Source of the DNA: a virus
Taxonomy: Duplodnaviria > Caudoviricetes
Direction: 5' to 3' (one strand)
IMG/VR virus record: IMGVR_UViG_3300037852_000224
Coordinates: 1 to 58,934 of that record
DNA: 58,934 nt
In this document: positions 9,145-58,427 of the stretch, piece by piece
Position numbering within the stretch: the stretch's first letter is position 1
Layout: the number at the start of each line of letters is the position of its first letter
Program-made: the position numbers and the translations under genes
The notes under the pieces: generated by a model
Database searches by the model: none
Told to the model about the DNA's origin: nothing
What the model saw: the letters and a program-made list of their open reading frames with translations, nothing else

Positions 9145-9390
9145 GTGAGTTCCACTCTCGCCGCAAAGATCGAATCGGCCAACCGTAGTCATCTGGCACG
9201 GGAGATGGGCGTAGATCGCAGCTACATTTCCAGGGTGCTTACCGGCCATCGCGGGATGAGTTTGGACCTAGCACTTAAACTGGGACGGAAATTCCGGGTC
9301 AGTGTCGAGGATTTAGCGGAATACCTGAACTCCCGGCGGGATGCGGAATTTGCAGTGGACGTGGAAGAGGATGAAGTGGCGGTTAATTAA
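9145..9390 (+). CDS. XRE-family HTH repressor
   Basis: SHLAREMGVDRSYISRVLTGHR...SLDLALKL; divergent from the replication operon. Confidence 0.85.
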   Translation: MSSTLAAKIESANRSHLAREMGVDRSYISRVLTGHRGMSLDLALKLGRKFRVSVEDLAEYLNSRRDAEFAVDVEEDEVAVN

Positions 9391-9923
9391 TAACTTACCG
9401 CCACCATCCACCCGGCGATTCCCATCGCCCACCCCACAATCACGTCCCCCAAGTAGTGTGCTCCCACCAGGACCCGGCTAAACCCTATCGCAATGGCGAT
9501 TAGAAGCGCTAGGACGAGCCAGGGCGTTCCTCGTCCTGTACCTACGGCAAGGGCGGCGGCAAGAGCACAGGCGGCATGCTGGGAGGGAAAGGAACGGGCG
9601 TACAGTCTACGGGCACGGGAGCCGACGATACGGATGGTGGAGCGGGAATAGGCTAGGTCCACCGCTGTGGTAGGCCGGGGACGGCGAATGAGGGATTTGA
9701 GAATGGCGGTAGCGGTCCAGGTTACAGCGATGGATTCGGCTAGGCGATGGGCAAGGATGGAGTGGCCGCCGAATCGCAGGGAGAGGTAGATGGCGGCGTA
9801 CAGTAAACCGTCTCCAAGATGGGAGAGGAAACGGTAGAAATGGCGAAGGGGATTGGATGGTGGTGCGATGGCGTAATGGTGGATTGCAGCGGTGGCGCGG
9901 CGGTCAAGGTCGATGAGGAGCAT
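9387..9923 (-). CDS. PAP2-family membrane lipid phosphatase
   Basis: KSLIRRPRP, SFPSQH, SRVLVGAHY motifs plus TM helices. Confidence 0.9.
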   Translation of the reverse strand: MLLIDLDRRATAAIHHYAIAPPSNPLRHFYRFLSHLGDGLLYAAIYLSLRFGGHSILAHRLAESIAVTWTATAILKSLIRRPRPTTAVDLAYSRSTIRIVGSRARRLYARSFPSQHAACALAAALAVGTGRGTPWLVLALLIAIAIGFSRVLVGAHYLGDVIVGWAMGIAGWMVAVSY

Positions 9924-24976: not shown

Positions 24977-25882
24977 TTATGGTATCAGGCTTAAAACGTC
25001 GAAACGGATAACGCTGTTGACTTTGTACGTAATTCCCGGCGAGGGAAAGAAATTAAGCGGATTATTGGCCGCGTTGACGTAATGGCACAGACGATTGCAA
25101 TTGACCGGGCCGTTCGACCGTGCCCGCCAATTGTTGTCGTAAAGTACCATTTGGAACTCCGGGTGGTTGGGGTCCTGTGAATTGGTCACTCCACCGGCAT
25201 TGGTGAAAGTGTATTCAATACGGCGGAGTTCAAAATCATTGTCCTGAATCGGGATGGTGAATTGGACTGGGCTACCTGGGCCTGTGGCGGTGGCGTCGGT
25301 GTTGAGAGTGAATGTGATGGAATAGGAGAAGTCCTCTTCCTTATACGCGTAGTCGCTGGGGGCAGGGTCAGAGACGGCGCTCATTTCACGACGAACCCCG
25401 TAGAAGGCCAGTTGCGACACTGGGGTGACAGCGGTCAAGTCCAGTGCCAACTGCACATTGGATAAGTCGAAGCGGAGAGCGGAGTTAAGGGGGAATTCCT
25501 TCTCCGGCAGTACCGCAGTGTTGGTGTTGGAATTGGAAAACACACTCACCGGCACGTCGAAAAACAACCGTGTGGATGCGTCGTAGATTTGAATCTTTCC
25601 CCAGGTGGATACCGCCCCGGCGCCGGACAGTGTGGAACTTGCCCCGCCCCATGCGCGGAGTACAAACCCACCATCCTGAATCTCAATGGGGATGTAAGCG
25701 TAGGATTGACCGTTGATTAATCCCTTCTGTCCTGGGTTGTAAACGTAGACGTAGAAATAATCTCCATACCCTTCCGGCGTTTTGTAATCGTACATCCCCG
25801 CGCTCCTTTTCACCGTTGCGTCCGAGAATGCGCATGGAATCCTCCGCACCCCCTTGAATATCAATGTGGCTGTGGCGGCCAT
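24977..25882 (-). CDS. Probable tandem (double) jelly-roll structural protein
   Basis: Internal duplication IEIQDGGFVLR / IPIQDNDFELR and NSALRFDL / NSVIRFDV. Confidence 0.55.
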   Translation of the reverse strand: MAATATLIFKGVRRIPCAFSDATVKRSAGMYDYKTPEGYGDYFYVYVYNPGQKGLINGQSYAYIPIEIQDGGFVLRAWGGASSTLSGAGAVSTWGKIQIYDASTRLFFDVPVSVFSNSNTNTAVLPEKEFPLNSALRFDLSNVQLALDLTAVTPVSQLAFYGVRREMSAVSDPAPSDYAYKEEDFSYSITFTLNTDATATGPGSPVQFTIPIQDNDFELRRIEYTFTNAGGVTNSQDPNHPEFQMVLYDNNWRARSNGPVNCNRLCHYVNAANNPLNFFPSPGITYKVNSVIRFDVLSLIP

Positions 25883-26296
25883 TTAGTATTTGTACCGGTT
25901 CGCTCCCAGGAATAGGATCTGCCCGCTGTTGGCGGCGCCACTTAGGTCTTGGATGTCGATGGTGATTCTCCCTCCGGCTGGGTACCACACTTCAGGGAAG
26001 TAGGGGTAGGGGTCGCCAGCGGAATTGGGCATGCACAGGGAGTTAATCAGCCCCGCGCTTAAAGCATATTGCTGACCATCGTAGAGACGGATTTGGAATC
26101 CCCCGGTGGAGGTGAACAATAAGCCACGGAACATAAAATCCGCGTCGGTCTGGATGCTCAATGTGTTGCCCAGGGATAGTTGATTGGATGTAAGTGAGAA
26201 AGAAAATGGGTAGCCGTAGGCCACGTCCAGATAGCCGGACGGAACGTTCGTGGGCATCGTGCCCTGGATGGCGGCGGGGGAAATCGGGTTGGTCAT
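25883..26296 (-). CDS. Probable single jelly-roll capsid/penton protein
   Basis: SIQTDADFMFRG..FQIRLYD..PEVWYPAGGRITIDIQD..QILFLGANR, paralogous to the halves of 24977-25882. Confidence 0.55.
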   Translation of the reverse strand: MTNPISPAAIQGTMPTNVPSGYLDVAYGYPFSFSLTSNQLSLGNTLSIQTDADFMFRGLLFTSTGGFQIRLYDGQQYALSAGLINSLCMPNSAGDPYPYFPEVWYPAGGRITIDIQDLSGAANSGQILFLGANRYKY

Positions 26297-26537: not shown

Positions 26538-27215
26538 TTACTGGACGCCGCGAGCGTGCAGACCGTCGAGCAGCATGCGCAGAGTGGCGCCGGTGCCACC
26601 ACTGCCAGAGGCCGCGAGTACCGCCGCCGACCCGACCAATTGACCGAAGAACGACGCTTGGTTGTCGATCACGATGTTAATGGCGAGTTCATGCCGGTGT
26701 CCCTTGGCCGGTAGGCCGTTGGAATAAGCCGAAGTGGCGGAGGCAGTGGAGAATCCTGCGATTCCGGTACCGGAATTGTAGAACGGCACGGGTCCACGGT
26801 TGTAATACTTCTGGCCGATCCACAGTTCCAGTTCGAACGAAGTGGAGATCAGGATCGCGTCGGCAAGCAGAATGTTCGGCCACCAGTCGAAATTGATGCC
26901 CATAACGGCGAACGCTTCCGGCGCGTCCAATCGCTTGGGTGACGTTACGTTGGTGTACGCCAGATTCTTCGCGGCGGCGCTGCCACCAATCGGCGTGAGG
27001 TTCGCCGTCGGGTTGGTGAAGAATTGCGTGTTGTTCGCAACGGTTCCAGCGGCGGCGGTCTGTACGGTGTCGTACAAAGGCTCGTGCTGAACGTCCATTG
27101 CGTTAGCTTGGAACGTTGTGCCATTGAATTGGCTGTAGATCCACGCTTGTTGTTCGGAACTGATTTGCCCACCCGCAGACATCATCTGGGGAGTGGCGGT
27201 TGCACCTGCGGACAT
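26538..27215 (-). CDS. Candidate major capsid protein (single jelly-roll type)
   Basis: Strong AAGGAG SD, flanking stem-loops, first gene of the jelly-roll array, ends in LRMLLDGLHARGVQ strand. Confidence 0.55.
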   Translation of the reverse strand: MSAGATATPQMMSAGGQISSEQQAWIYSQFNGTTFQANAMDVQHEPLYDTVQTAAAGTVANNTQFFTNPTANLTPIGGSAAAKNLAYTNVTSPKRLDAPEAFAVMGINFDWWPNILLADAILISTSFELELWIGQKYYNRGPVPFYNSGTGIAGFSTASATSAYSNGLPAKGHRHELAINIVIDNQASFFGQLVGSAAVLAASGSGGTGATLRMLLDGLHARGVQ

Positions 27216-27254
27216 ATTATTCAAGTCTCCTTGTGGAATTTGGTTTCAACCTGC

Positions 27255-27333: not shown

Positions 27334-28359
27334 TTACCGCCGCATCCCGAACGCGCCACGGAACGCTCCGACGCCGGACGGTGGGGTCTTGCTCACCGGA
27401 GCCAGCATCATCGGCATTCCCGCTTTAATGGGGTTCTGCGGGACAACAAAACTCCCCGCCATGATATCCCCCATACCGGACAATGCAAGCGCGTTGGTCA
27501 GCGATGGAGGAGCGATGATGGTCAGGATCTGACTGGCCGCCTGCGCCAGCCCGCCCAACATTACTGCATCCCCAAACGGTTCACCAACAAATTTGCGCCC
27601 TGCCCACCCGGCGGCAAACGCCCCGCCGACGGTGATGGCCACTCCCATCCACGGACTCCCCCCGCCGAGACTGGTGATACTCGCCGGAAGCAATGTGGGT
27701 AAGTACTTGGTCGCAGCCACGCCGATGAGAATCCCACCGGTCATGGTCAACAGGTCTTTGCCCGAGCTGCGCCCAAAAATCGACGGGTTGCGATGACGCA
27801 TGGTGTAACGCCGGTGGGAATTATGCCGACGCCGACGATGCCTCACTACTCCCGTGTTGTGCCGACGATACCGGCGGCGGCGGTGAACCGGGGGGTTGTG
27901 CGCCACTCGGGTACGCCGACGATGCATTGTGTATCTCCGCCTGCGCCGGGGAACCGCAGCACGCGTGTTACGGCGGCGGCGGCGGATACTGGTCTTACGT
28001 TTACGTGCTGCCACTGACTTTGTTCTCCTTTTTCTTGGATTGATCGCGCCCAGTTCGATGAGGATCGGATTGGGCCGTACTGCGGCACGACGGCGGCGAG
28101 TGTATCGCTTACGTCGTGAATGCACAGGACGGGAGGTAGGGTTGGCCCGTACTCCCCGCTTGCGCAATTCCTTTTTCAATTGCTTGACCGAATACCGCTT
28201 GATGACGGCGCCTGTACGCCGACGGTGGGCGGTGCGCTTACCATGGGATGATGCGTTCCGCTTTAGGAATCTTCCCTTGGAGTTACGTTTTAACGAGAAT
28301 CGTTTGCGACCGGCGCGGCGTGGATTCGAGATCCGGCGGACCAGTCTGACAGTTGCCAT
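27334..28359 (-). CDS. Arg-rich protamine-like core protein with C-terminal TM helices
   Basis: About 190 aa of R/K-rich sequence punctuated by NP, then three hydrophobic helices and GMGD...VPQNPI. Confidence 0.7.
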   Translation of the reverse strand: MATVRLVRRISNPRRAGRKRFSLKRNSKGRFLKRNASSHGKRTAHRRRTGAVIKRYSVKQLKKELRKRGVRANPTSRPVHSRRKRYTRRRRAAVRPNPILIELGAINPRKRRTKSVAARKRKTSIRRRRRNTRAAVPRRRRRYTMHRRRTRVAHNPPVHRRRRYRRHNTGVVRHRRRRHNSHRRYTMRHRNPSIFGRSSGKDLLTMTGGILIGVAATKYLPTLLPASITSLGGGSPWMGVAITVGGAFAAGWAGRKFVGEPFGDAVMLGGLAQAASQILTIIAPPSLTNALALSGMGDIMAGSFVVPQNPIKAGMPMMLAPVSKTPPSGVGAFRGAFGMRR

Positions 28360-28803: not shown

Positions 28804-30351
28804 CTATACCGCCGCTGGACATGCAAACACAGGGACAATGTCCTCGTCCTTTGCGTCCATTCGTGGTAGCTTCGGAGCCTTGGATGGTGGAGCAGGGACA
28901 GTGGCAGTGTTAAACTTCACTCCCCCCGCAGGCAAAGTTAAAATGTCACGTAACTTTAAGTGTGGAACGGCCACACGGCGGTCCACGTAAATCTGGAATC
29001 CCTTGTCGATGGCACGGGAGCAGAAGGATACGTCTTCACCGCTGAAATCGAATCCCCCGCCGTCCACGCCGGTGTCGGTTCGAATTAACGGTGAGAACGC
29101 CAATGGGGTCATGGCTTCAAGTAAACTGCGGCGGAACAGTACAACCGGGAATCCCGTGTAATCCACCCGGTGGAAATCGGCACATTCCGGCCCCAGGAAT
29201 TCTTCCTCTGGGATAGGGATGGTGGTATTGTCGTTGGCCAATGCCCCACACGATATCTTCCGCTCCGTATGGACGAACGGCGTGCCGATTAACGTCCACC
29301 CGGCGACCATCGCGGCGTGTGGAGCGTACTCCAGGTCGGTAATCAATTGCAGGACGTTGGCCAGTGTGACGAGGTTGTCATCGTCAATCGACAACATGTA
29401 GTCCACCGGGGGAGTAATCGCCAGCGCCTCCCGTGCCGCGACGATTCGCGTCTGATACACATTGGAGGAATTGAACTGGATGACGATGGCGTGATGATAT
29501 TGGCCAATGGTGGAGATTAACGTGGTCCATGCGTTCACCCATGCGGCACTAAACGTCTCCCCGGAGACACACAGAGCGATCCTTCGCCGTGGGATAGGGG
29601 CAGTGGTGGCGATAGCGGTATGGGTGGCTATGTCCACTTCCTTAAACCCGTTTGCCCGCCGCGCCATGAACAACTGCTGCCCTAGATTGTACGCCGTCTG
29701 CCGATTCTGCGCCGCGTAGGCGCCATCCATCTGCACGGTGGAGTCGAAGTAGGGGTGACGATGGGGGAACAGGATGGAGCGATCCATCCGCACGATGACG
29801 CATTCCCCGTTCGATTCGTCCTGTATTGCGTGCTCACAGAGGTCGTTGTCGGAGTACATGGATTCGTACCCTGGATAGAGGAGGTATCCAAGGGAGTGGT
29901 AACGCTCACGAGAGACGATGGGCATAGGCATGATGCGGCGTTCCACTTCATGTGGAGTTCCTGTGTTGACCCAGACAACGAATCGGGACTCATCCCCGGC
30001 CTGTGAAGTAATCGCCTGCTCCATCAGCGTGTCCCAATGCAGGGCTGGGTACTGGTCGTCGGCGTTGACAATGAACACATCGCCAGTAGCGTACTTGGCG
30101 GCGAGGTTGACACCGTCCACGTAGCACTTGCGTTCTGTGTTCCAGACCAATTTATCCTTGTGTCCGCCAAATCTCTCCAGATCCATGAAACCGTTGGGCC
30201 ATTCCTCTTCCTTTTCCGTAAACCCCCATCTCTTATCCGCGCACAACACGTACTCCACGTTAGATGGATTGTCCGCCGCCGCAATCCACGCGTTGTATAC
30301 TTCCTTCCACTTCCCCGGTCGTGCACTGGTGTGTAAAATGCTAAACGTCAT
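28804..30351 (-). CDS. Tandem two-domain GT-A glycosyltransferase
   Basis: FSILH...VNADDQY...YSDNDL and SIDDDN...TGF...GEDVSFC. Confidence 0.8.
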   Translation of the reverse strand: MTFSILHTSARPGKWKEVYNAWIAAADNPSNVEYVLCADKRWGFTEKEEEWPNGFMDLERFGGHKDKLVWNTERKCYVDGVNLAAKYATGDVFIVNADDQYPALHWDTLMEQAITSQAGDESRFVVWVNTGTPHEVERRIMPMPIVSRERYHSLGYLLYPGYESMYSDNDLCEHAIQDESNGECVIVRMDRSILFPHRHPYFDSTVQMDGAYAAQNRQTAYNLGQQLFMARRANGFKEVDIATHTAIATTAPIPRRRIALCVSGETFSAAWVNAWTTLISTIGQYHHAIVIQFNSSNVYQTRIVAAREALAITPPVDYMLSIDDDNLVTLANVLQLITDLEYAPHAAMVAGWTLIGTPFVHTERKISCGALANDNTTIPIPEEEFLGPECADFHRVDYTGFPVVLFRRSLLEAMTPLAFSPLIRTDTGVDGGGFDFSGEDVSFCSRAIDKGFQIYVDRRVAVPHLKLRDILTLPAGGVKFNTATVPAPPSKAPKLPRMDAKDEDIVPVFACPAAV

Positions 30352-30725
30352 TGGATGGTCATTCCCCTCTTCAAATCGTTTTCACGATACGGCAGCCTGT
30401 GTCCTCTCAACCGCTCCAAGTACACTGTATCCATGCTCTCCATGGTCGGCACCCCTGGAATCAATTGAGCACGCATGCTCCCGATGTATTTGTCACAATC
30501 CTCTGTACACCCTGTCCCACTCGCACACCCAAGGCAGCAAAACTGACTACACCACTCCGCTGAAGCAGTGCAGGCGAAACGGTCACACTCCGATTTCTTA
30601 CATGCGTAGAAGTGTACGATATAGCGTTTGCCCACCGGCTCCGGCCCAAACGCAAAAGCGGAATACACTTTCACGTTCACAGCCGAATTGTCAAACCCAG
30701 GTTTAAACTTGTTCTCCATGTTCAA
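30348..30725 (-). CDS. Cys-rich hypothetical protein
   Basis: Dense Cys cluster in the central segment; translational coupling on both sides. Confidence 0.55.
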   Translation of the reverse strand: MNMENKFKPGFDNSAVNVKVYSAFAFGPEPVGKRYIVHFYACKKSECDRFACTASAEWCSQFCCLGCASGTGCTEDCDKYIGSMRAQLIPGVPTMESMDTVYLERLRGHRLPYRENDLKRGMTIQ

Positions 30726-32626
30726 TCTTCAATCCCCGGACTCGTTTCCAACACCGGCAGGGAGATAAAATACACCCCCCCGTCCAAATACAATTGCTGA
30801 TTCCTAATGTCGTACCGCAATTGCGGCATGGTCCCGCCGGAATCCTCACTGAAGGAGTGGATGTACTGTGTTGGTTGGAACTTGTCGAAGTCCTTTTCCG
30901 TCTCGTACGCGATGCACACCACATCACCGACGATGTACGATTCCTTATCCTTCTCCTCACCCGTCGCCTGAAACACACTCAGGTCTAATTCCTGATCCCC
31001 ACCGTCGAGGAATAGTTGTTTCCCATTCTCCGTGGACGTGAGCATGCAATCTTCCGTGGACTGGTCGGCTTTGACGAATCCCCCGTCCCGTTTGTCGTTC
31101 CACTTGTAATCCCGTGGGATGTGGCCCTTCCATTCGTAGCCTGACAGGCCGATGACGATTCGCCCTACCGTGGGGGAATCGACAATGAGACCGCAGCATA
31201 CCGCGAGTCCACCGACATTCTCGTGGTAGTGGAAGTCTTTTTCGATAACGATGGTGGAGGTGGAGGGCTTACCGTGGAATTTTGCGTAAAGATCGTTGGC
31301 GGTGGATTCAGGATTGGACTTCATTGGCTTACCCACTCGGCCACTAGCAAGTACCGCTCTATTCTCCGGTGTGTCATCAACAAAATAGAGATTGGACTTA
31401 GAGCCGAGGGAAACAGGCCCATACCACTTAACTCCCGACACCATCTTTTTCAGTCTTCCAGCTTGACTATGGGAGGATACCTGCACCAACAATTTGCCAT
31501 CCCGCTTTGCCCTTTCCTTGGCGTGTTTAGTAAGTGTGTAAGATGGATTCCGCCGGAGCGGCCCAAATCCTTTCGGCAATCTCGACATGCCCGGCCCGGC
31601 CCGCCGTTCCACCTCAATCCTCAATTCCGTTTGCTTCCGATGCAGCTCTTTCATCCGCCTTGCCAATGGATCGTCCAACTTAAAGGTCTCGGAAGGACGT
31701 TCATTCCCCCGTCCTGCATCGATCATTTCCCGAGTTAACTTACTACTCTGCACGTCCAGCTTGTCCAGTGCCTTGTTAATCTGCCCAGCGGTCATACTGT
31801 GGATATCGGGATTGTGTTTGCCCGCAAGCTTACTCCCCACCCTCCCCAACTGCCGATCCAAATACCTCCCCACGGATTTCCCAGTCTGAGTAATGCCGGA
31901 GACGGTGGATTCAATGGGGCCGGGATTACCCTGATACGGCGTCAGCCTTCCAGACGACAGGGCACGTTCAGGCCCAAGCGTTTCGTGCAATCGCTGCCAG
32001 TCTCCAAACTTATTCCCATCCGGTCCCTTCCCAGGTTTGAATCCAGGGTGGCGGAAGGACGGACGGATATACCACTTTTTTCCACGCTTCTGGAACAGAG
32101 AGCCATAAGCGGCATCGATATAAACCGGGCTGTTACTGTTGGGATTCGACGCCACAAATCTTTTCGCCTCCGCCAGCGATTCAAACCGGGATTCCTTGTC
32201 AATCGCCGGAATTATATATTCATCTCCCACCCGATCAATCTTGTACCCCTTAAACCGCACACTCCCGCCAGCCTCCACCTTCTCCGGGCCGGTCTTTTTC
32301 ACATACTCCCTATGCTCATCCCTCACTCCCTTTTCATACGCCGACCGCAGCTTGTTCACCAAACTGGAATGGTGCGTATCCCGTTCGCTCTGCGGCAGTC
32401 TGCGGTACCAATCCTCAAACCCTCCGGTGTCCCTCATCCCACCCTGCCCACGGTAGCCGTCGTCATACGCTTGTTGCAGATACCGGGATGAGAACGTGAC
32501 GGTGGGACGGGCAGTCTTACCACTACCCTTGGCCTTACCTTTGGCCTTGGATTTTGACTTGGACCCACCAAACCCAAAAAGGTTCGATTTCGCCTTTCTC
32601 CTCCGGGATGTTGCCGTTGCCGCCAT
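30722..32626 (-). CDS. Basic mosaic protein of NP-delimited modules (core/cargo candidate)
   Basis: K/R-rich; segments end in SNP, GNP, HNP, RNP, SNP; globular C-terminal domain. Confidence 0.65.
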   Translation of the reverse strand: MAATATSRRRKAKSNLFGFGGSKSKSKAKGKAKGSGKTARPTVTFSSRYLQQAYDDGYRGQGGMRDTGGFEDWYRRLPQSERDTHHSSLVNKLRSAYEKGVRDEHREYVKKTGPEKVEAGGSVRFKGYKIDRVGDEYIIPAIDKESRFESLAEAKRFVASNPNSNSPVYIDAAYGSLFQKRGKKWYIRPSFRHPGFKPGKGPDGNKFGDWQRLHETLGPERALSSGRLTPYQGNPGPIESTVSGITQTGKSVGRYLDRQLGRVGSKLAGKHNPDIHSMTAGQINKALDKLDVQSSKLTREMIDAGRGNERPSETFKLDDPLARRMKELHRKQTELRIEVERRAGPGMSRLPKGFGPLRRNPSYTLTKHAKERAKRDGKLLVQVSSHSQAGRLKKMVSGVKWYGPVSLGSKSNLYFVDDTPENRAVLASGRVGKPMKSNPESTANDLYAKFHGKPSTSTIVIEKDFHYHENVGGLAVCCGLIVDSPTVGRIVIGLSGYEWKGHIPRDYKWNDKRDGGFVKADQSTEDCMLTSTENGKQLFLDGGDQELDLSVFQATGEEKDKESYIVGDVVCIAYETEKDFDKFQPTQYIHSFSEDSGGTMPQLRYDIRNQQLYLDGGVYFISLPVLETSPGIED

Positions 32627-32649: not shown

Positions 32650-33156
32650 CTACGACCGGTACGCCCGGTACGCGCTACGGGCACGGCTGACACGGGATGG
32701 ACCAGTAGACCCCGACAGGAAAAAGAACAGTACCGCCGCTCCCAGTAAATACCCATATACCGGGATGCCCATAATCGTGTCGGACAACGCGGTGGAATAA
32801 TTCCCCGCGCCTAAATCCGTGGTGAATTGAGTCCAATCCGTTGTCAGCGTCCCCATCCCACCGTGGCCGCCACATCCTCCGCCACATCCACACCCACCGC
32901 CACATCCCCCCACCTTGCTCCCGTTCAACTGCCCAGGGGTGGTGGACTGTTGCCCAATTAATTTCACCCGACCGGAGGTGTAATCCTTAATCGGGTTCTG
33001 TGGTACGGCGAATGCCGCTGGGAGGATGTCGCCGATCCCAGGGGTGTAGGTGATTCCAGACAAGCCGACATCGATGGGGTTCTGTGGGACGGCGAACCAC
33101 CCCGCGAGTAGATCGCCTAATCCCGGTGCCGGATGAATGCTAAGATTGCCAGCCAT
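32650..33156 (-). CDS. Membrane protein with two G(L/I)GD...F.VPQNPI repeats and a Gly/Cys tract
   Basis: Repeats visible; GGCGGGCGCGGGCGG; TM helix and basic tail. Confidence 0.7.
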   Translation of the reverse strand: MAGNLSIHPAPGLGDLLAGWFAVPQNPIDVGLSGITYTPGIGDILPAAFAVPQNPIKDYTSGRVKLIGQQSTTPGQLNGSKVGGCGGGCGCGGGCGGHGGMGTLTTDWTQFTTDLGAGNYSTALSDTIMGIPVYGYLLGAAVLFFFLSGSTGPSRVSRARSAYRAYRS

Positions 33157-33181
33157 GTTCAATTTCCTTTCCGTTTCCGTT

Positions 33182-33502
33182 TCATTTCTTGATAACTGCG
33201 ATGAGCACCAACCCACCGAGAAGTAAGCCAATTAACGTGCCGCAACTCACACCGGCATAAGTGGAACACACATCCGGTAAGCCGACCGCTCCGGGGTTGG
33301 CAGCGAGACACGCCATTTCACTGGCGGAGCAAGTGGTGGTGGCTGGGTTGCCGCCGATGAGTGGAATGGCGCTGTACACCACCGTGGACAGACTGGAGCA
33401 GTGGACTTCTCCAGGATCGTGCGTGGCGTCATAACACGTACCTCCCGGCGGGATGCCGGTTTGGCCGAGACCAGACAGTGCAGGGAGTGTGGCGAGTGTC
33501 AT
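33182..33502 (-). CDS. Cys-rich tail-anchored membrane protein
   Basis: LSGLGQ; 6 Cys; TM-KK end. Confidence 0.7.
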   Translation of the reverse strand: MTLATLPALSGLGQTGIPPGGTCYDATHDPGEVHCSSLSTVVYSAIPLIGGNPATTTCSASEMACLAANPGAVGLPDVCSTYAGVSCGTLIGLLLGGLVLIAVIKK

Positions 33503-35240: not shown

Positions 35241-35681
35241 TTACCGTTTATTCCTGCCGCCACTGGTCACCAACAACGCCAACGCACCGAGACCCAATAG
35301 TGCGAGGAGTGGATTGTCGTTCACCCAACTGGACATCACATCCGCGCAAGGTTGAGCGATCACAGCGGGAGTGGTGTCTATAATCGACGGCATCCTCGCT
35401 GCCATCCCCGGCACCGTCACCACTGGCATCGGTGCCACCACAGCGGCAGTGTTGACCATCGACGGCATAGTAGCGAGTGCCGCCGATTGTGATTTCGGTG
35501 TGCACCCTGGGATGCGGCTTTGATACGGAACACACTGCGGGTCGTCGCACACTTTAGCCCCGACGTATCCAGCGAGACTACAGGCTTGGATCGTAGCCGG
35601 ATCGGTCGGCACTCCACATTGCGCCATGAGGCACACAGTGGGATCTACACCGGAGGGAGTGGACAATTGGCCTAGTCTCAT
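35241..35681 (-). CDS. Cys-rich tail-anchored membrane protein
   Basis: MRLGQ; ends WVNDNPLLALLGLGALALL. Confidence 0.7.
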   Translation of the reverse strand: MRLGQLSTPSGVDPTVCLMAQCGVPTDPATIQACSLAGYVGAKVCDDPQCVPYQSRIPGCTPKSQSAALATMPSMVNTAAVVAPMPVVTVPGMAARMPSIIDTTPAVIAQPCADVMSSWVNDNPLLALLGLGALALLVTSGGRNKR

Positions 35682-36211
35682 CGCCGTGCCACCAGCCATG
35701 CCAACGCCGCCAGCCCCGCGAGTGCAAGCAGGGGATTGTCATTGATCCATTGCGCCATGGGATTCCCACATCCACCAATCACCATCGTGTTGGGTTGCAC
35801 AATGGACGGCATGCGTTGGCGTAAGTCATACGGCCCCGGTCCAGGTGCGGCACCATAACCATAGCCACCATCGGGTCCATAACTCCCTCCAGGACCATAG
35901 CCGCCGGATGGGCCATTGCCTGTGTCCGTGATCGACGGCATCCCAGCGGTGGTTGCCGATGGCATGGGTACAGTGGACGCCGATGGCACAGGACTACCGG
36001 TTCCAGTTGGCGCCGCCGATGTGGTGACCAAAGGATTGGCGGTGGAGGCTATATTCACCGGTATGGCTTGCCCGGCCTGTCCAGGGTTGTAGTAGCTGGC
36101 TCCACCACTCAATGAGTAAAGAGTACTGAGGAACAATGGAGCGGACGGTGAGTAATCCGGCGCGTTCTGCAACTGCGCCGCTACGATATCGCCCATGCTC
36201 AATTTCGCCAT
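35678..36211 (-). CDS. Tail-anchored membrane protein with an anchor paralogous to 35241-35681
   Basis: LSMGD; GGYGP repeats; WINDNPLLALAGLAALAWL. Confidence 0.7.
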   Translation of the reverse strand: MAKLSMGDIVAAQLQNAPDYSPSAPLFLSTLYSLSGGASYYNPGQAGQAIPVNIASTANPLVTTSAAPTGTGSPVPSASTVPMPSATTAGMPSITDTGNGPSGGYGPGGSYGPDGGYGYGAAPGPGPYDLRQRMPSIVQPNTMVIGGCGNPMAQWINDNPLLALAGLAALAWLVARR

Positions 36212-36216
36212 GTGGA

Positions 36217-37017
36217 TTACGCCTTCCCCAGCAGGAACAATCCCGCCGCCGCTGCCGCAAGGATTATCCAATTAGCCTGCAACCATTGCGTGATCTCGTC
36301 CGGCGCCACGGTGGATTGTGTCTGCTGCGTCCCACCCACTGGTTGCGTCCCACTACCGGATTGATTGGTTGCGTTATTAATCTGCGCCTGTGTCGGCGTG
36401 GCCGGGGCGGTCGGGGCGTTTGTCACCAGTGCATTAGCTGTCGGTGCACCAGTAGTGATGCTCACCGGCGGGCCGTACTGTATCGCGGCTTGCGACGGCA
36501 TGTTCTGCGGCGACGTGTTGGGGTTGACCACAATCGGCCCGTAGTAATCCCCACTCGCCGCGTTCGCCGCTTCCGTCGCCCACACCGACGCTGGGAATCC
36601 GCCGAAGAAAGATTGCAATTGCGAGATGTACGGAGCCAACGCAGCGGGCAGATTATTACACGCCGCATCCGGTGGGCATCCAATCAATCCAACATCCTGA
36701 TTCACCACGGCGCAATACTGTTGCGCAATCGCCATGGCCTGCTGCTGCGCCGCTTCACTGGGGGAGCCGCATGGCGCACCGCCACCAGGGCCACACCCTA
36801 CCGCCGCGTCCGTTTGTGGTTCCGCCGACAACGATGCCATCCACTGTTGCATGTATCCATCGAAATTGGATTCTGGACATCCCGCCGGGGCTTGACCTAA
36901 TCGTCCCAACCCCCGCATTCCCGGATAACCAGCACGCCGACGATACGCATACGCCCGTGCGGCGCCGGGAGGGATCGGGGTCATCGGTCCTGTTGACTGG
37001 CGGGATGCAAGCACCAT
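36217..37017 (-). CDS. Cys-containing tail-anchored membrane protein
   Basis: MRGLGRLGQ; C-terminal TM. Confidence 0.7.
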   Translation of the reverse strand: MVLASRQSTGPMTPIPPGAARAYAYRRRAGYPGMRGLGRLGQAPAGCPESNFDGYMQQWMASLSAEPQTDAAVGCGPGGGAPCGSPSEAAQQQAMAIAQQYCAVVNQDVGLIGCPPDAACNNLPAALAPYISQLQSFFGGFPASVWATEAANAASGDYYGPIVVNPNTSPQNMPSQAAIQYGPPVSITTGAPTANALVTNAPTAPATPTQAQINNATNQSGSGTQPVGGTQQTQSTVAPDEITQWLQANWIILAAAAAGLFLLGKA

Positions 37018-37029
37018 AAGGATTCTCCT

Positions 37030-37914
37030 TTAACCTTCCATCATCAGTACCGCCGCCAGCACCAACCCGATAATCAATGGAACCGGCAGACCACTTTGTG
37101 TCCCTCCGGCCACTGTCCCGCCGCTACCAACTGTCGTGTTTGCATTAACGCCACTGCCCGTTGCAACTGTATACGCAGTTCCCGTGTCCGTTCCAGTTCC
37201 CGTTGCACTGTTCGTTGTATCCGCTGCTCCTGCCACTGGGTCCGGCACAACTGTAGGGTCGTTGGCGATGGGGTCGTGGTATCCAATGAACCAGTTCCAA
37301 CAGGCTGGTCCACTTCCATTTGTTCCGGGGTAGACATACGACCAATTCCCTCCCAGGTTCTGTTGCCATCCACCAGGACTAGTCTTGTAATGACATGCTC
37401 CCGCCTGCCGGTCGGCAATACAGTTAACTCCCGCTTGGCCAAGGGCGGATTGTCCACATGCGGCAAGCACGGCCTGCCATGCCGTGTTGAAATTGTTTAG
37501 TGCCGCTTGTTGTAGAGAGTAATAGTGGACCGGAGCGGCAAGGTAATTGTCGAGATTCTGTTGCAGGATGGGTTCGGCTTGATTGACGTAACTGGTAGCT
37601 TCAGTACAAGTCTGCCCACAGCCGGAGAACACTTGATACAACGCTGCACCTAGAGCGATGGCCCCGGTGATTGCCAGCCCGATTGGTCCCGCGATAGATG
37701 TTCCTGCCGCGATAGCGGAGAGGGAACCGAGGATGCCTACTGTGACGGATGCACCAGCGGCGGCGATCTTGGAGGCGTCACCAGCGACGGTTTGGCCGAG
37801 ACCGGATAATCGTGGCGTGCGTCGGGGACGAAATTGTACGCGGGATTGCGGCAGGGTGCTCAACGCTGGGTACGCGTAGGTGGAGGAGGCGAATTGGCGT
37901 TGGGCGTAATTCAC
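37030..37914 (-). CDS. Membrane protein with Gly/Ala hydrophobic hairpin and C-terminal TM (DNA-delivery candidate)
   Basis: LSGLGQ followed by an AAAGASVTVGILG...AGPIGLAI segment; Cys pairs. Confidence 0.65.
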   Translation of the reverse strand: MNYAQRQFASSTYAYPALSTLPQSRVQFRPRRTPRLSGLGQTVAGDASKIAAAGASVTVGILGSLSAIAAGTSIAGPIGLAITGAIALGAALYQVFSGCGQTCTEATSYVNQAEPILQQNLDNYLAAPVHYYSLQQAALNNFNTAWQAVLAACGQSALGQAGVNCIADRQAGACHYKTSPGGWQQNLGGNWSYVYPGTNGSGPACWNWFIGYHDPIANDPTVVPDPVAGAADTTNSATGTGTDTGTAYTVATGSGVNANTTVGSGGTVAGGTQSGLPVPLIIGLVLAAVLMMEG

Positions 37915-38339
37915 TTGCCTTGCAGTTGCTTCCTTTTCTTTATAGCCTGTGACTTTGTTGCGTAAGGACCGGCCACGATGGTAGGAGCTTTCTTTGGTCC
38001 CGTCTCCACTACCCATCCATGTCCAGCGAACGCGATGCGTAAAGGTTCAGGATTGCGGATGTGCCGTGGGTTGACGAACACCCTCACCGTCCCATCCCTA
38101 CTAATCTTCACCTTCGCCGGGATCATCCCACCGGGATTCCCCCGCGCCAACTTACGACCGGAACGCACTGGGTTCTTTGCCCGCTTCCACATTCCGTGAA
38201 TCTTCTTAAGCCGTTTCTGTAGAGCTTTTGTGTAGGCCGACGTTCTGCCACCAGATTTGCTGTCGGCATGCTGGGACTTTTCCAAATCCTTGTACGCCTG
38301 ATTGAGCATCAATCCTAGTTGGTGTTTTGTATCAGCCAT
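37911..38339 (-). CDS. Basic protein with NP motifs
   Basis: AKNP, RGNP, VNP, RNP; K/R-rich. Confidence 0.6.
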   Translation of the reverse strand: MADTKHQLGLMLNQAYKDLEKSQHADSKSGGRTSAYTKALQKRLKKIHGMWKRAKNPVRSGRKLARGNPGGMIPAKVKISRDGTVRVFVNPRHIRNPEPLRIAFAGHGWVVETGPKKAPTIVAGPYATKSQAIKKRKQLQGK

Positions 38340-38347
38340 GAGCTTGC

Positions 38348-39058
38348 CTACTTCCCCCGCCCCATAAACAAAAACAGCAACACTGCCCCACCAATCAACA
38401 GCACCGCCGGATTCGCCACTCCACTCACCGCCCCTGCCACTCCCGCCGTCGCCGCACTCGCCGGACTCCCATAAATAAGAGTGGACCCATTCGCCAGCTT
38501 CAACGCCGCCCCACCCTGCGCCACTGCCAGCACACTGGCCAACTGCTGTCCACTTTGATTAATCACCTGTGCCCACTGATACCCGGCTGGAGGTTGTGGC
38601 GGCTGCACTCCGGGAGGGTAACTTAATTGCCCGTTGTACCCAGGGGGCTGTGTTTGCGCCACGGTACCCTGTGGAAACGACAGACTGTACCCACTCGTTC
38701 CCGGTTGCGGCATCGACACTGTCAAATCCGGATTACTCAGCGTTAACGACGCCGCGTTCAAATCCGCCTGACTCAAATCCTGGTTCGCCAAATCCACCGA
38801 ATCCGCATTCGCCAAACATGCCACGTCCGACGGGTCACACACCTGTCCCATCCCCAGTCCATGCAACGCCGCCACCCGCCGCAATTGTCCTACCCCACTG
38901 GTCCCCGTGGACCGCCGCAACCTCACTCCCACCACGGGATTGGAATTCGCCATATACAACCCCGGCACAATGGGATTCTGCGGGACGATGAATGCACCCT
39001 TAGTAATATCCCCCAGTCCCACTTTCCCGCCACCGGTACTCGGCACCGTTAAATTCAT
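38348..39058 (-). CDS. Tail-anchored membrane protein with GLGD...F.VPQNPI motif
   Basis: VGLGDITKGAFIVPQNPI, SGVGQ, LHGLGMGQ; C-terminal TM. Confidence 0.7.
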   Translation of the reverse strand: MNLTVPSTGGGKVGLGDITKGAFIVPQNPIVPGLYMANSNPVVGVRLRRSTGTSGVGQLRRVAALHGLGMGQVCDPSDVACLANADSVDLANQDLSQADLNAASLTLSNPDLTVSMPQPGTSGYSLSFPQGTVAQTQPPGYNGQLSYPPGVQPPQPPAGYQWAQVINQSGQQLASVLAVAQGGAALKLANGSTLIYGSPASAATAGVAGAVSGVANPAVLLIGGAVLLFLFMGRGK

Positions 39059-39786
39059 GCGATCCACCCCCATTTCTTGCCTGTCCACCACACGCCCATA
39101 GCCACCAGCGTGTACCCGATGGCTCCCACCATCCACTCCAGTCCACCGGCGATCCCACCGCTAATCCCCCACTCCGTTTTGCGCCTTACCTCTACCGCTT
39201 GTTCCGCTTCCCATCCTGGAGCCGACCCGTGGGATGCATCCAACGGGATGCGTATACTTGTGCCGTCTATATGTGGATACGCCGCAACGTACACATGAGA
39301 GTACTGGTACGGGGCGGTGGCGTCGGCTGCGACAGTGACAAACGCACAGGGAATGCCAACCGCCTCCAGCAATGCGGCAAGGTACATGGAATAGTCGTCG
39401 CAATCGCCAACGCTCAATCCCAACTCTACGTACCGTTTCATATCCAACGGTCGGATGATGACTTCAATCACATCATCAGGATTGATTCCAGTGCCCGCTA
39501 ACCGTGCCGCGTTCAATTCATCCCGTTCAAACCGGAGGGAGCCTTTGGTATGTGCATAAGCATTGGCCACCTGTTCCAGTTGTGTGCCGTTACCGCAGAC
39601 TCCCCCTGCCCACTGTTGAAACTCTGGTGCCTGTGCATCCTCACTCACCCTCTGCCGCATCAATCCAATGGTCTGCCCCACTTGTGCATCCGGCCACGCC
39701 CCTAGTTCCCTCACTGAGAATCGCACCGCGCCCAGTCGATCATGCGTTGCCGTGGCCGCCGTGGCTTTGTCGATGTGCATTCGCAT
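39055..39786 (-). CDS. Transglutaminase-like (papain-fold) Cys enzyme, membrane-anchored; candidate maturation protease
   Basis: GDCDDYS..LAALL (Cys), YSHVY (His), IPLDAS (Asp) triad; C-terminal TM. Confidence 0.85.
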   Translation of the reverse strand: MRMHIDKATAATATHDRLGAVRFSVRELGAWPDAQVGQTIGLMRQRVSEDAQAPEFQQWAGGVCGNGTQLEQVANAYAHTKGSLRFERDELNAARLAGTGINPDDVIEVIIRPLDMKRYVELGLSVGDCDDYSMYLAALLEAVGIPCAFVTVAADATAPYQYSHVYVAAYPHIDGTSIRIPLDASHGSAPGWEAEQAVEVRRKTEWGISGGIAGGLEWMVGAIGYTLVAMGVWWTGKKWGWIA

Positions 39787-43402: not shown

Positions 43403-44203
43403 TCACAGTGTAGGCACCAGTCTCCAAGTGTTGACCGCCGTGCACACGTAATAATTCTGTGCCACCGTGTCGGTGTAGGTATCCCTCCCGACGACGCAAT
43501 TTATCGTGGGGGCGCCCACGCCGGTGAAATACCGGGGTTGCGTGGTGGAGTCTATCTCCACTGTTATTTCTCCACTTACCGGATCTGGCATGATAACAAT
43601 CCCCTGCCCTGGGACGATGGATGTGGATGGTGACGGTGATGGTGTAGGCGTAGGCGTTGGTGTCGGCGCTGGCGGCGTATACGGCGCATCCGATAGCACC
43701 ACACTGGTAAGTTGTGCACTCGCTCCAGGGGATGACTGATTAGCGAAGAATGCGAAGTACTGCCCTGTCACCATGGGAGTAAACGGCACATTCGACACTA
43801 ATACTGCTGGTGCCTGTGCATTCGGCGCTAACCCGTAAATCTCATCCACCAGTGCACAATTAACCGGGGAATTACACCCGGACATTCCCACTAGTGCAAC
43901 AGTGTACGACGCTAACGACGGGCCGCCAATTAACGAGAATGACAGATAATATTTCGTCCCTGCCGTGAGATTCACCGACCCCAATTTAATCTCACCGCCC
44001 GTTCCAAATGTAACGTAATTCCCACCGCCCGCCGCCGCCACTGTAACCGGCCCTACCACCACGGTCGCCGTATTCAGCGTCTTACCGGTCTGGTATACAC
44101 CGGGAGCCACTCCGGCGAAGGATTCCGACAACAGCACCGCGCCATGTACAGCGGTGGTGGCTAACAGTGCACACGCGATTCGGAGCATAGCGTGTGGTTT
44201 CAT
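43403..44203 (-). CDS. Secreted carbohydrate-binding-like protein with PT/PS linker
   Basis: Signal peptide VHG-A; LTAGTKYYLSFSL beta-sandwich; PTPTPTPSPSPS; CVVG..YVCTAVNTW tail. Confidence 0.6.
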   Translation of the reverse strand: MKPHAMLRIACALLATTAVHGAVLLSESFAGVAPGVYQTGKTLNTATVVVGPVTVAAAGGGNYVTFGTGGEIKLGSVNLTAGTKYYLSFSLIGGPSLASYTVALVGMSGCNSPVNCALVDEIYGLAPNAQAPAVLVSNVPFTPMVTGQYFAFFANQSSPGASAQLTSVVLSDAPYTPPAPTPTPTPTPSPSPSTSIVPGQGIVIMPDPVSGEITVEIDSTTQPRYFTGVGAPTINCVVGRDTYTDTVAQNYYVCTAVNTWRLVPTL

Positions 44204-44443
44204 CCTATCGTGATTCCTTCCACGCCGCGCCCAGTGCAAACACCACCAGTGCCACCCCGATAACTACCACGATATGACCAAGCTGTATGTATCCCATGAC
44301 CGGATTGTGCCCCATGAAGTACCGGCATACAATAGTACTCCAGTACCGATTTACAACAAAAGTGTCCTCCGATTTTCTCCACGGCTCGGAGGAACACCGC
44401 TATGGTTAGAAGGGGTCTGGTAGTCCCCCTCCCTGGAGAACCT

Positions 44444-56532: not shown

Positions 56533-57144
56533 TTAGATTGCCCGGTCGGGGTGGATGATGTATTCGTTGAGGTCGCTGAGGAACCACGGTTGGCAGCCGG
56601 TCTCAGGTTGCATTTGCGACCGGTAACAGGCTAGTGCTCGATGCTTGGCCACCAGCGCGTCCGGGGACGGCACGGGGTAGGCGGTGGAAGTGCGGGTCCT
56701 GCCGCCGGTTCGCGTGTAGGTTGTATACCGACGCAGGCGGCGGCAGTCCACACCGAATGCTTCGACCGCCGCCATGGTTACGAGATTGTGTTGGACGTGG
56801 CCGTGGTCTTCACCTAAGGGGCAGTACACTTCACACTTGCCGTCGTCGAATTGTTTGAGCATAGTGGAAAGGGTTATCATCCACCGTTCTAGGTCCGCAT
56901 TGTAGTCCATATCATCACGGAGCTTTAGGAAGTGGATTCTGCCTGCTGTGTCCGGGAGTAGGTATTTATATGCGGCGATGGATTCCTCTACACGGTCCAT
57001 GACGGAGCAGTTGGGGATGCCACGAGCAGGCTGGATGTAAGAATCAAACGCGATGATAATGTGGGCGTCGTCGCGGTGCTCCCAGAGGGGGAAGGCGCAG
57101 AACAAGGGGACATCATCCCCGTGTGGGCAGAGGAATAGCGTCAT
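56533..57144 (-). CDS. PIG-L/LmbE-family deacetylase
   Basis: PHGDD, HVQH, KHRALACYRSQ. Confidence 0.8.
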   Translation of the reverse strand: MTLFLCPHGDDVPLFCAFPLWEHRDDAHIIIAFDSYIQPARGIPNCSVMDRVEESIAAYKYLLPDTAGRIHFLKLRDDMDYNADLERWMITLSTMLKQFDDGKCEVYCPLGEDHGHVQHNLVTMAAVEAFGVDCRRLRRYTTYTRTGGRTRTSTAYPVPSPDALVAKHRALACYRSQMQPETGCQPWFLSDLNEYIIHPDRAI

Positions 57145-57410
57145 GATTCAATCGGTCCAATCTCCGTCAGGATTTTGCTGATGTGTTTATGTAGGCAGGA
57201 CTCGGAACATAGGTCACGCTTCTCAGTAGTGCAATTAAGCACGGCCATCGTGTAGGGCTGATGTTTTCCCATGGAGAACCCAGTCACCTTGGCTTCTACC
57301 GCTCCATTTGATGCGTCCACGGCATGTGAGTACACCCACACCTTCCACCACTTGTTGGCCTCTTTCTTGATGGCAGGACATTCGTCACACTTAATCCCGT
57401 TAAAGTCCAT
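57141..57410 (-). CDS. Small zinc-binding protein
   Basis: CDEC...DLCSESC. Confidence 0.6.
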   Translation of the reverse strand: MDFNGIKCDECPAIKKEANKWWKVWVYSHAVDASNGAVEAKVTGFSMGKHQPYTMAVLNCTTEKRDLCSESCLHKHISKILTEIGPIES

Positions 57411-57650
57411 GTCCTGATCCTCCCGGAGCCTTCAATTTCTCTCTAACAGCGTGCAAACAGTGTTCACCGAACGTTCCCAACACATCGATAGACAATCGGT
57501 CGTACTTATCCTGGTCGAATACCCAAAACCGGTTGAAACGCAGGAGTTCGATGAATAGCAATTCAATCTCGGTGAAATCCCCGGCGGGGTCGTTGCGCAT
57601 GTAGGGTTTATCCTTCCTGTTTTCTCTTCTCAGGGTCCATTTCCGCCCCC

Positions 57651-58427
57651 TCATACGGCCCGCCCGCGTTTGGTGGCTATGTTCTCTGGACTCCCTTCCC
57701 ACCACTGCCAGAGGTCCCGGCAGTGTTCCGGGTACTCCCGCCACACGCGGCGTTGCACGCCACTGGCGTCGTATTGAGCGTTCAGTGTCCGCCACGGTTC
57801 GAACGGCAAGTGATCCAGTAAAAACACAGGCAACGGTGGATCGATGAACGCTTTAATTGCCTGTGGGTTGTTCCACTGCCATTCCGAAAGACCGAATCTC
57901 CCACTGGCGCCGTTGGGTGTAGGCAGGGGACGGGACTCGAACGCCCTCCGGCGGAATAACCCGATCCCACCGATGTTAGGGACGATGCGGACGCAACGGG
58001 ATGCATTCCCCCAGGTATCAGCGGGGTTTAGGGTAGGGGGGAATACTGTAGGGTCTGGCGCCCACGCTTCAATGCCTAGGAGGTCTACGCGGAAATCGTT
58101 GAGGACGGTGCAGGATTGCTCCAGCCATCGCGGGGGGACTATGGTGTCATTGTCGATTTTGGCGATGTAATCGGCAGAGGAAATGGACAGTGCATGATTG
58201 AGAATGGCGACGGGGCCACCAAAACATTCCTTGATAAAATATAGATTGAGCGGGAACTTAGGGGAGGTATCTGGGTAATATAATGCTTCTGTCTCTCCAT
58301 CGGTGTAGATCCAGAAATGCTCCACCATGGCCCAGTTCGTGTTCTTAATCAGATTGAGCAGGGACACGGAGGTGAATTCAGGCCGCCCGTGGGCGAGGAA
58401 GATTAGATCGATGGTTGGATGTGTCAT
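57651..58427 (-). CDS. GT2-family glycosyltransferase
   Basis: IDLIFLAHGR, YIAKIDNDT..PPRWL, IGGIGLFRR. Confidence 0.8.
   Translation of the reverse strand: MTHPTIDLIFLAHGRPEFTSVSLLNLIKNTNWAMVEHFWIYTDGETEALYYPDTSPKFPLNLYFIKECFGGPVAILNHALSISSADYIAKIDNDTIVPPRWLEQSCTVLNDFRVDLLGIEAWAPDPTVFPPTLNPADTWGNASRCVRIVPNIGGIGLFRRRAFESRPLPTPNGASGRFGLSEWQWNNPQAIKAFIDPPLPVFLLDHLPFEPWRTLNAQYDASGVQRRVWREYPEHCRDLWQWWEGSPENIATKRGRAV

Follow-up and report, generated by a model that had tools for sequence, protein, structure and literature searches.

In adenoviruses, the core precursors pVII, pX/mu and pVI are matured by the adenovirus protease at (M/I/L)XGX-G, and the basic peptides stay with the DNA. The internal proteins of phage T4, which has an HK97-type head, carry a capsid-targeting leader that is removed by the prohead protease gp21 after Glu. 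Polyvalent proteins of phages and conjugative elements have been described as multi-domain mosaics with free gain, loss and reordering of domains, and it has been proposed that they are delivered along with the DNA and cut into units (Iyer, Burroughs, Anand, de Souza and Aravind, 2017; PMC5512222). What defines them in that text is a set of catalogued conflict domains (MPTase, ArdC-N, methylase-helicase, DdrB-ParB and others), often with a Zn-metallopeptidase (PMC5512222). Division of a chain at Asn has been described for asparagine peptide lyases, namely for FlhB/YscU (MEROPS N6), where Asn|Pro-Thr-His is scissile, and for reovirus mu1 (N7), which is cleaved at Asn-42 (PMC3207474). Here, we compare with these systems the 634-residue basic protein p634 of an uncultured virus, the genome of which is available as IMG/VR record IMGVR_UViG_3300037852_000224. 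This record of 58,934 bp is complete, is flanked by direct terminal repeats and constitutes, at its full length, the window referred to below. The p634 gene is present in single copy and encodes a cassette-type, polyvalent-like basic protein, in which a constant two-part C-terminal domain is preceded by a variable string of small modules. Each module is introduced by Asn-Pro (NP) after a basic linker of variable length.

The initial annotation of the locus had described p634 as unrelated segments separated by FVASNP, YQGNP, GKHNP, LRRNP and MKSNP. All five contexts are exact and correspond to N161, N234, N272, N360 and N438. Five NP contrast with 0.96 expected from composition, and only 6 of 5000 shuffled sequences reach this number. 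Six further sites had been listed for a protamine-like, Arg-rich protein (ISNP, RANP, RPNP, AINP, AHNP and HRNP) and were found at N12, 73, 97, 107, 155 and 191, accompanied by a seventh (VPQNP, N309); seven observed NP stand against 0.84 expected, a number not reached in any of 5000 shuffles. The four sites noted in a 142-residue basic protein, p142, are N56, N68, N90 and N96 (0.31 expected, 0 of 5000 shuffles reaching four). The comparison with background that had been proposed thus places NP far above composition and shuffle expectation in all three proteins, and the carriers are indeed basic (Table 1), the same punctuation being conserved in the Arg-rich protein and p142 of two syntenic relatives. 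Over 98 greedily chosen open reading frames of the genome, 77 NP were counted as compared to 48.4 expected, and the surplus resides in few proteins encoded at 27.3-39.1 kb.

Homologues of p634 are numerous. An exhaustive phmmer search retrieved 1643 representative clusters at E<=1e-3, 727 at <=1e-10 and 63 at <=1e-30, while a word-indexed protein search yielded 18 proteins including the query. The family analyses reported here were performed on 156 sequences returned out of the 1643 clusters at E<=1e-3. In these proteins, NP occurs 926 times as compared to 143.4 expected (6.5-fold) and is the top enriched dipeptide, with 32% of all Asn residues being followed by Pro. Each protein contains 5-15 seams, as we term the NP-marked junctions, and successive NP are spaced by a median of 67 residues. 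All other N-x and x-P pairs remain at or below 1.2-fold (NG 0.54, SP 1.14, GP 1.02, DP 0.74); together with the shuffles, their lack of enrichment rules out generic compositional bias. N-G was considered as an alternative seam on the basis of a few exceptions, but it is depleted overall. The surroundings of the seam are asymmetric. A [KR]-x-N triplet precedes Pro in 424 of 745 cases, E, A, K, G and S are the commonest residues after NP, and the net charge amounts to +1.23 in the ten residues before and -0.16 in the ten residues after the dipeptide at a family mean of 0.03. The seam is thus preceded by a basic, variable tail that is probably disordered.

At the DNA level, nothing comparable is seen. 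Seam asparagines are encoded by AAT (18) and AAC (11), all four Pro codons are used and flanking bases are unconserved; AAYCC shows no frame-independent enrichment and outside frame 0 is not enriched in two of three genes. A recombination site or methylation motif as the cause is ruled out by these observations. Because codons vary and AAYCC is not enriched independently of the reading frame, NP acts as a junction signal in the protein, and it is the protein, not the DNA, on which selection has maintained it.

The relatives of p634 share the last ~200 residues, and their small upstream modules differ in set and order, in full agreement with the description of p634 as a chain of unrelated segments. 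By means of a hidden Markov model built from the alignment, the C-terminal domain was detected in 153 of the 156 proteins, which range from 107 to 1226 residues in length; its position is always C-terminal. Of 450 clustered homology-block borders in the first 18 proteins, 88 are no more than four residues away from an NP (null mean 39.5, not reached in any of 2000 random placements), and 81 of the 112 NP have a block border within the same distance. When 864 NP sites situated at least 30 residues from a protein end were evaluated in the 156 proteins, block ends peaked exactly on Pro, with 1253 at position +1, 344 at 0 and 695 at +2 as compared to ~70-240 at offsets of 20-30. Block starts are most frequent at -2 (5472), owing largely to the common C-terminal domain. 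Insertions were counted when they comprised at least 25 residues, were distinct and were flanked by collinear homology, and an end was scored as carrying NP when the dipeptide was found within eight residues. Among 714 such insertions, 209 have NP at both ends, about seven times the chance value (null mean 30.5, maximum 47 in 500 trials), whereas 285 carry it at one end only and 220 lack it at both, many of the latter being located in a single variable loop of the constant domain. The gain, loss and exchange of modules at NP that the initial annotation had suggested looking for is therefore evident from block ends on Pro, from doubly flanked insertions and from the sharing of NP-to-NP modules detailed below. 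NP is also found close to the start of the proteins, by residue 20 in 47 of the 148 that begin with Met (27.7 expected from the NP density of the family). Many of these leaders take the form M-x(1-8)-N-P and directly precede a known module; leaders of 2-10 residues have no upstream domain at all. One recurrent NP-prefixed module, NPAKFDRCV..V...G...NAYA(I/V)CTA with two conserved Cys, occurs in homologues P0008, P0010, P0012, P0027, P0046 and P0066 and in one of the syntenic relatives (Table 1).

An invariant seam precedes the constant domain, which consists of two sub-domains, E1 (NPE..FHG..HxH) and E2 (SNEDGTQL..GGDQ..SPGIED). All 132 aligned rows have N438 and all but one have P439, a conservation as high as that of the best core residues (Y574 and K578 in 153/153, H590 in 152/153, G452 in 134/134). 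E1 was located in 145 proteins, and NP lies before FHG in 142 of these, in 139 exactly 12 residues before it; the remaining three proteins start at a Met four residues ahead of FHG. Short motifs allowed us to locate E1 or E2 halves in 119 of the 156 proteins and both halves in 107. Among 71 proteins with contiguous halves, only six have NP in the 22 residues ahead of E2, as opposed to all 36 proteins carrying modules between the halves; it follows that NP is not part of the downstream fold. E1 is unrecognised in a further 12 proteins, six of which have NP before E2. In split proteins, E1 and E2 can be 130-500 residues apart. For P0014 (residues 263-328 plus 486-601), structure prediction gave a median pairing score of 0.58 as opposed to 0.00 for the best of three controls; the mark for pairing is reached by 116 of 157 solved complexes and by 2 of 215 mismatches, with only 18 of the 157 and both mismatches falling at or below 0.60. 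At least 72% of the contacts agree between runs, and the predicted local distance difference test value (pLDDT) of the partner is at least 50. These models weakly suggest that E1 and E2 of a split protein may still pair.

Residues invariant in the constant domain include His451, His468, His590, Glu533, Lys578 and Tyr574. p634 did not match a single family in Pfam or PHROGs, and among 64 relatives only Endonuclease_7/HNH (in three) and DUF2314, DUF2188 and DM9 (in one each) were recognised. A profile search of the constant domain against PDB returned a chance-level best match (E 0.43), and Foldseek searches against PDB and BFVD revealed none at E<=0.001. Look-ups in the ESM Atlas gave scores of 0.85 or lower and no name.

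From an alignment of 64 rows, AlphaFold2 produced a model of p634 with a mean pLDDT of 73.5, while prediction from the single sequence reached a mean of only 36.5. Three of the six NP-bounded segments appear as confident folds. Confident domains comprise residues 45-163, 275-353 and 435-634, and low confidence was obtained for 1-41, 164-271 and 354-431. Domain borders away from NP would have spoken against the initial annotation; in the model, four of the five seams (N161, N272, N360 and N438) are situated at edges of confident domains and the fifth, N234, lies within low-confidence sequence. NP161-162 immediately follows a helix (151-160), and NP438-439 immediately precedes another (441-451). 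Segment 3 is made up of a Gly-rich helical module of the type GP(I/V)....G......D..LG(K/R)V(L/V)G(x)NP, which is also present at the N-termini of P0008, P0010, P0050 and P0089. It is often the first module of a protein, and its LG.V.G-NP ending resembles the Leu/Met-Gly tags of membrane proteins.

Two syntenic relatives of the virus are available, L002, a 44-kb metagenome contig found by a metagenome scan, and L003, a 41-kb IMG/VR contig retrieved with a degenerate DNA pattern; two viral-contig scans and one genome-contig scan did not provide any relatives with DNA context. The Arg-rich protein is fast-evolving and 60% identical to its L002 homologue. Across the three genomes, N12, N107, N191 and N309 are nevertheless invariant together with their Pro, and at N73 and N131 only Asn is retained, the next residue being Pro, Ser or Thr. 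For p142, the three genomes agree in N68-P69 but differ in the N-terminal module upstream of it. Residues 16-71 of the L002 homologue of p142, reaching from NP to NP, are 49% identical (E 1e-11) to residues 315-370 of the p634-type protein P0005, again reaching from NP to NP. Cassettes therefore move between different NP proteins.

Two longer motifs also contain the dipeptide. G(L/M/I)GD(I/L)..G.F.VPQNP(I/V/M/F), with invariant Gln-Asn-Pro, is shared by membrane-anchored proteins and the membrane part of the Arg-rich protein. As the initial annotation presented Asn-Pro as a second processing or sorting signal, this motif is probably the first one it alluded to. W(I/V)NDNPLLA occurs directly ahead of C-terminal hydrophobic anchors and represents a third, acidic NP context at the border of a membrane segment.

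How does p634 relate to the described systems? Polyvalent proteins combine two to fifteen distinct domains in a single polypeptide, and p634 resembles them in having six NP-bounded segments, of which three are confident folds, with relatives differing in set and order. It differs in that no conflict domains of the catalogue were detected with Pfam and PHROGs, the only recognisable domains in relatives being the few HNH/EndoVII (3/64), DUF2314, DUF2188 and DM9 matches mentioned above. The word 'linker' does not appear in the text of PMC5512222, and among 12 of its 13 cleavage-related passages none describes an Asn-Pro seam. As in asparagine peptide lyases, Asn-Pro would mark the division of a chain, with release of a small peptide in viruses (PMC3207474). 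In FlhB/YscU and mu1 as presented there, however, a single site resides within one folded domain, whereas p634-type proteins have 5-15 sites per protein ahead of unrelated modules. The N6 signature Asn|Pro-Thr-His, which in FlhB/YscU resides in a loop of a domain with a four-strand sheet and four helices, is virtually absent from the family (NPTH in 2 of 926 NP). N7 is characterised by self-cleavage at an N-terminal Asn-Pro of a coat protein; the pair occurs in p634, and neither a PDB profile search nor Foldseek against PDB and BFVD indicated a match in sequence or fold.

The adenovirus core resembles p634 in combining basic DNA-associated proteins with a short recurring site. There, cleavage is proven, the site is (M/I/L)XGX-G and the virion contains a cysteine enzyme; for p634 the site is basic-x-N-P, processing is inferred, the host is probably bacterial and a corresponding enzyme is only a candidate. 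An adenain homologue or other clan CE cysteine protease was not detected with Pfam among the 58 window proteins scanned, in place of which the genome encodes a transglutaminase-core protein. The internal proteins of T4 come to mind as packaged basic proteins with short leaders that are cut off at a simple motif, the counterpart here being the 47 of 148 proteins with NP no more than 20 residues from the start, but an HK97-type head, a known protease or a Glu site was not found. Searching the full text of articles did not retrieve any report of an Asn-Pro seam of this kind. Such a module seam in mosaic or polyvalent-type viral proteins thus appears unreported, and it is strikingly strict.

We favour the interpretation that a dedicated enzyme recognises the seam for endoproteolytic cutting at or beside the N-P bond, and assign it a probability of about 0.35. 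p634, the Arg-rich protein and p142 would be cut during particle assembly or entry, and a single gene product would give rise to several small basic proteins or peptides remaining with the DNA. Cutting would let modules swap freely, even into a loop of the constant domain. Such processing would account for the sharing of NP by unrelated modules, for its presence at the end of short leaders, for the punctuation of a protamine-like protein and for the acceptance of whole modules by a loop of a conserved domain; it is supported by the specificity of NP, by the constraint at the seam, by its behaviour as a junction and by its accessibility. Precedents are the processing proposed for polyvalent proteins (PMC5512222), the maturation of adenovirus cores and self-cleavage at N|P (PMC3207474). 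Several points weigh against it. Cleavage products, proteomes and N-terminal sequences are lacking for all family members, and the motif has not been linked to a protease. Pro at P1' is disfavoured by most endopeptidases. Beyond NP the site is only loosely basic, with K/R amounting to 46% at -2 and with leaders like M-A-N-P lacking basic residues. A cut after a leader of 2-8 residues would remove very little, and insertion of domains into loops is also common in uncut proteins. Furthermore, the sequences are related, such that the counts of block ends, insertions and E1/E2 arrangements do not represent independent events, and many of the 36 split proteins share NPxDPISTSTxLLC, which points to few events of descent. 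The idea of a processing signal at module borders is partly supported, in that modules are exchanged at NP, whereas processing, sorting and delivery with the genome are hypotheses.

It is possible, if doubtful, that the seam stays uncut and that Asn-Pro acts as a helix-stop/helix-start insulator and hinge between independently folding cassettes, travelling with these when they recombine and leaving p634 as a beads-on-a-string chain. Asn at helix C-caps and Pro at N1 are classical, and seams bordering confident domains, directly before helix 441-451 and directly after helix 151-160, fit well, as does the weakly supported prediction that E1 and E2 pair across 130-500 residues (median 0.58 vs 0.00 for the control). 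The turn-forming pairs SP, DP, GP, TP and NG should make equally good hinges, though, and are not enriched. An insulator would also hardly be expected to keep Asn in 132 of 132 and Pro in 131 of 132 rows or to be missing before E2 when no cassette is inserted. NP is kept after leaders of 2-10 residues, where there is nothing to insulate; the lack of an upstream domain in these cases speaks for more than a hinge. Decidedly unlikely is a docking or sorting function, in which the basic tail and NP would form a tag binding DNA, the inner membrane or a packaging factor for loading of uncut cargo. The charge asymmetry around NP (+1.23 upstream vs -0.16 downstream), the punctuation of a +81 Arg-rich protein with a membrane-like domain by the same motif and the occurrence of NP within the second conserved motif of membrane proteins, G(L/M/I)GD..F.VPQNP(I/V/M), would agree with it, but two fixed residues are very little for a binding site, there is no known partner, and 5-15 copies per protein exceed the need for a sorting tag.

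We attach very little probability to self-cleavage through cyclisation of Asn, i.e. asparagine peptide lyase chemistry that would proceed spontaneously in linkers or be assisted by the constant domain. Precedent exists in the scissile N|P of FlhB/YscU and in the cut at Asn-42 of reovirus mu1 (PMC3207474). In the Arg-rich protein Asn is better conserved than Pro, as seen at N73 and N131 where P is replaced by S or T, and invariant Tyr, Lys, His and Glu of the constant domain adjoin the invariant NP. Known lyases nevertheless depend on a folded catalytic context; the seams of the family, by contrast, are found ahead of many unrelated modules and in linkers modelled with low confidence. In addition, NPTH makes up just 2 of 926 NP, a lyase fold was not matched in a minimal comparison of the C-terminal domain, and uncatalysed cleavage at Asn-Pro is slow. 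Translational separation of the 2A/StopGo type was dismissed: NPGP is found at residues 234-237 of p634 and 19 times in the family, the full consensus D(V/I)ExNPGP 0 times.

If a dedicated protease cuts at the seam, two candidates may be named. One is the membrane-anchored transglutaminase-fold protein, whose GDCDD, SHVYV and PLDAS stretches (containing Cys, His and Asp) are kept in L002; the other could be the constant domain with its invariant His, Glu, Lys and Tyr. The former qualifies as a processing enzyme by inference only. It is simply a conserved neighbour, and this again counts against the protease reading. It could be a protease, a cell-wall enzyme or a cross-linker acting on the invariant Gln of VPQNP. 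An extension of the protease reading, which we consider unlikely, takes N|P as the cut mark of an undescribed maturation system with a dedicated in-particle enzyme in probably tailless, membrane-containing bacterial viruses, with cassette polyproteins and the protamine-like core protein as substrates. The enzyme would be either the membrane-anchored transglutaminase-fold protein or the constant E1+E2 domain, which would then represent a new family of proteases or lyases. Cutting might set free small peptides, basic or Gly-rich and helical (e.g. residues 235-272), that condense DNA or act on the host membrane at entry. The system would then parallel, in bacterial viruses, the maturation of adenovirus cores and the release of membrane-active peptides that depends on Asn in reo- and nodaviruses.

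In either case, the NP seam would offer a simple readable rule for splitting viral dark-matter proteins into units, applicable to more than 1600 representative clusters. If cut, it would show that core or cargo proteins of a bacterial virus devoid of recognisable capsid, portal and terminase genes mature in the manner of polyproteins, and it would point to a protease or lyase with a new specificity, Asn|Pro, that could be of practical use for cleavage. If uncut, it would constitute a natural 'domain insulator' with which a folded domain can take up whole modules.

Table 1. Positions of p634, its segments and further features in the window and, where indicated, in the relatives L002 and L003
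Feature	Coordinates	Strand	Remarks
p634 gene, 634-aa basic mosaic protein	30722..32626	-	Open reading frame, stop codon included; net charge +25
Segment 1, aa 1-161, ends N161	32144..32626	-	Basic leader and module A
Leader of segment 1, aa 1-15			Basic, ends KAKSN before LFGFG; module A is the confident fold aa 45-163
Segment 2, aa 162-234 (P162 to N234)	31925..32143	-	Weakly conserved, low pLDDT
Segment 3, aa 235-272	31811..31924	-	Gly-rich helical module GPIESTV...GRYLD..LG, NP at each side
Part of p634 between segments 3 and 5	31547..31810	-	
Segment 5, aa 361-438, ends MKSN438	31313..31546	-	Almost genome-unique, low pLDDT
Segment 6, aa 439-634, constant C-terminal domain	30725..31312	-	E1 and E2, pLDDT ~95
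Arg-rich protein, protamine-like	27334..28359	-	Net charge +81, 7 NP; membrane-like Gly/Ala-rich C-terminal part
142-aa basic protein (p142)	37911..38339	-	4 NP
Transglutaminase-core (papain-like fold) protein	39055..39786	-	PF01841, E 4.1e-5; C-terminal hydrophobic anchor
Counterpart of transglutaminase-core protein	L002 850-1563		GDCDD, SHVYV and PLDAS kept
VPQNP motif	32650-33231; 38348-39136; 27334-28359	-	Twice in 32650-33231; near C-terminus in 27334-28359
VPQNP motif in relatives	L002 1560-2339, 8444-8938, 12914-13900; L003 4574-5041, 10140-11123		
W(I/V)NDNPLLA motif	35241-35699; 35678-36271	-	
W(I/V)NDNPLLA motif in relative	L003 1995-2663		
Two-Cys module NPAKFDRCV	L003 5442-7418		
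Cys-rich 125-aa open reading frame	30348-30725	-	Starts 4 bases before p634 gene end
Counterpart of Cys-rich open reading frame	L002 10591-10950		After p634 homologue
278-aa protein with Walker A motif	43403-44239		Possible packaging ATPase
Candidate capsid proteins	26538-27224; 25883-26296; 24977-25882		Small, conserved, downstream of Arg-rich gene
PAP2 lipid phosphatase, glycosyltransferase-like, PIG-L-like deacetylase and GT2 genes	9387-9923; 28804-30351; 56533-58427	-	

The genome carries an ordinary set of genes for DNA metabolism and replication, with PolA encoded as separate exonuclease and polymerase genes and with UvrD-like and XPD-like helicases; ParB, ThyX, UDG, a Dam-type methylase and a tyrosine integrase were likewise recognised by Pfam and PHROGs. 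Neither database provided a match to capsid, portal, terminase or prohead-protease families among the 58 window proteins scanned. A run of proteins, each with one C-terminal hydrophobic segment, is encoded at 32.6-39.8 kb, and p634 is placed in this late block of membrane-protein genes, a position which is the sole indication that it might be packaged or transferred with the DNA. As matches to capsid, portal and terminase families are lacking and a row of C-terminally anchored proteins is present, gene content suggests that the particle may be tailless and membrane-containing. No link to cultured phages became apparent when p634, the transglutaminase-like protein and the Walker A protein were compared by tblastn with 50,697 phage records, and phmmer searches of three putative structural or ATPase proteins against PDB yielded nothing below E 0.06. 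The 278-residue Walker A protein might serve in packaging, and small conserved proteins encoded downstream of the Arg-rich gene are candidates for capsid proteins.

The glycosyltransferase-like protein encoded beside p634 is large and consists of two domains. Along with the PAP2, PIG-L-like and GT2 genes, it points to a possible modification of lipids or glycans by the virus. The overlap of the p634 gene with the start of the Cys-rich open reading frame suggests translational coupling, and a counterpart of the latter follows the p634 homologue in L002.

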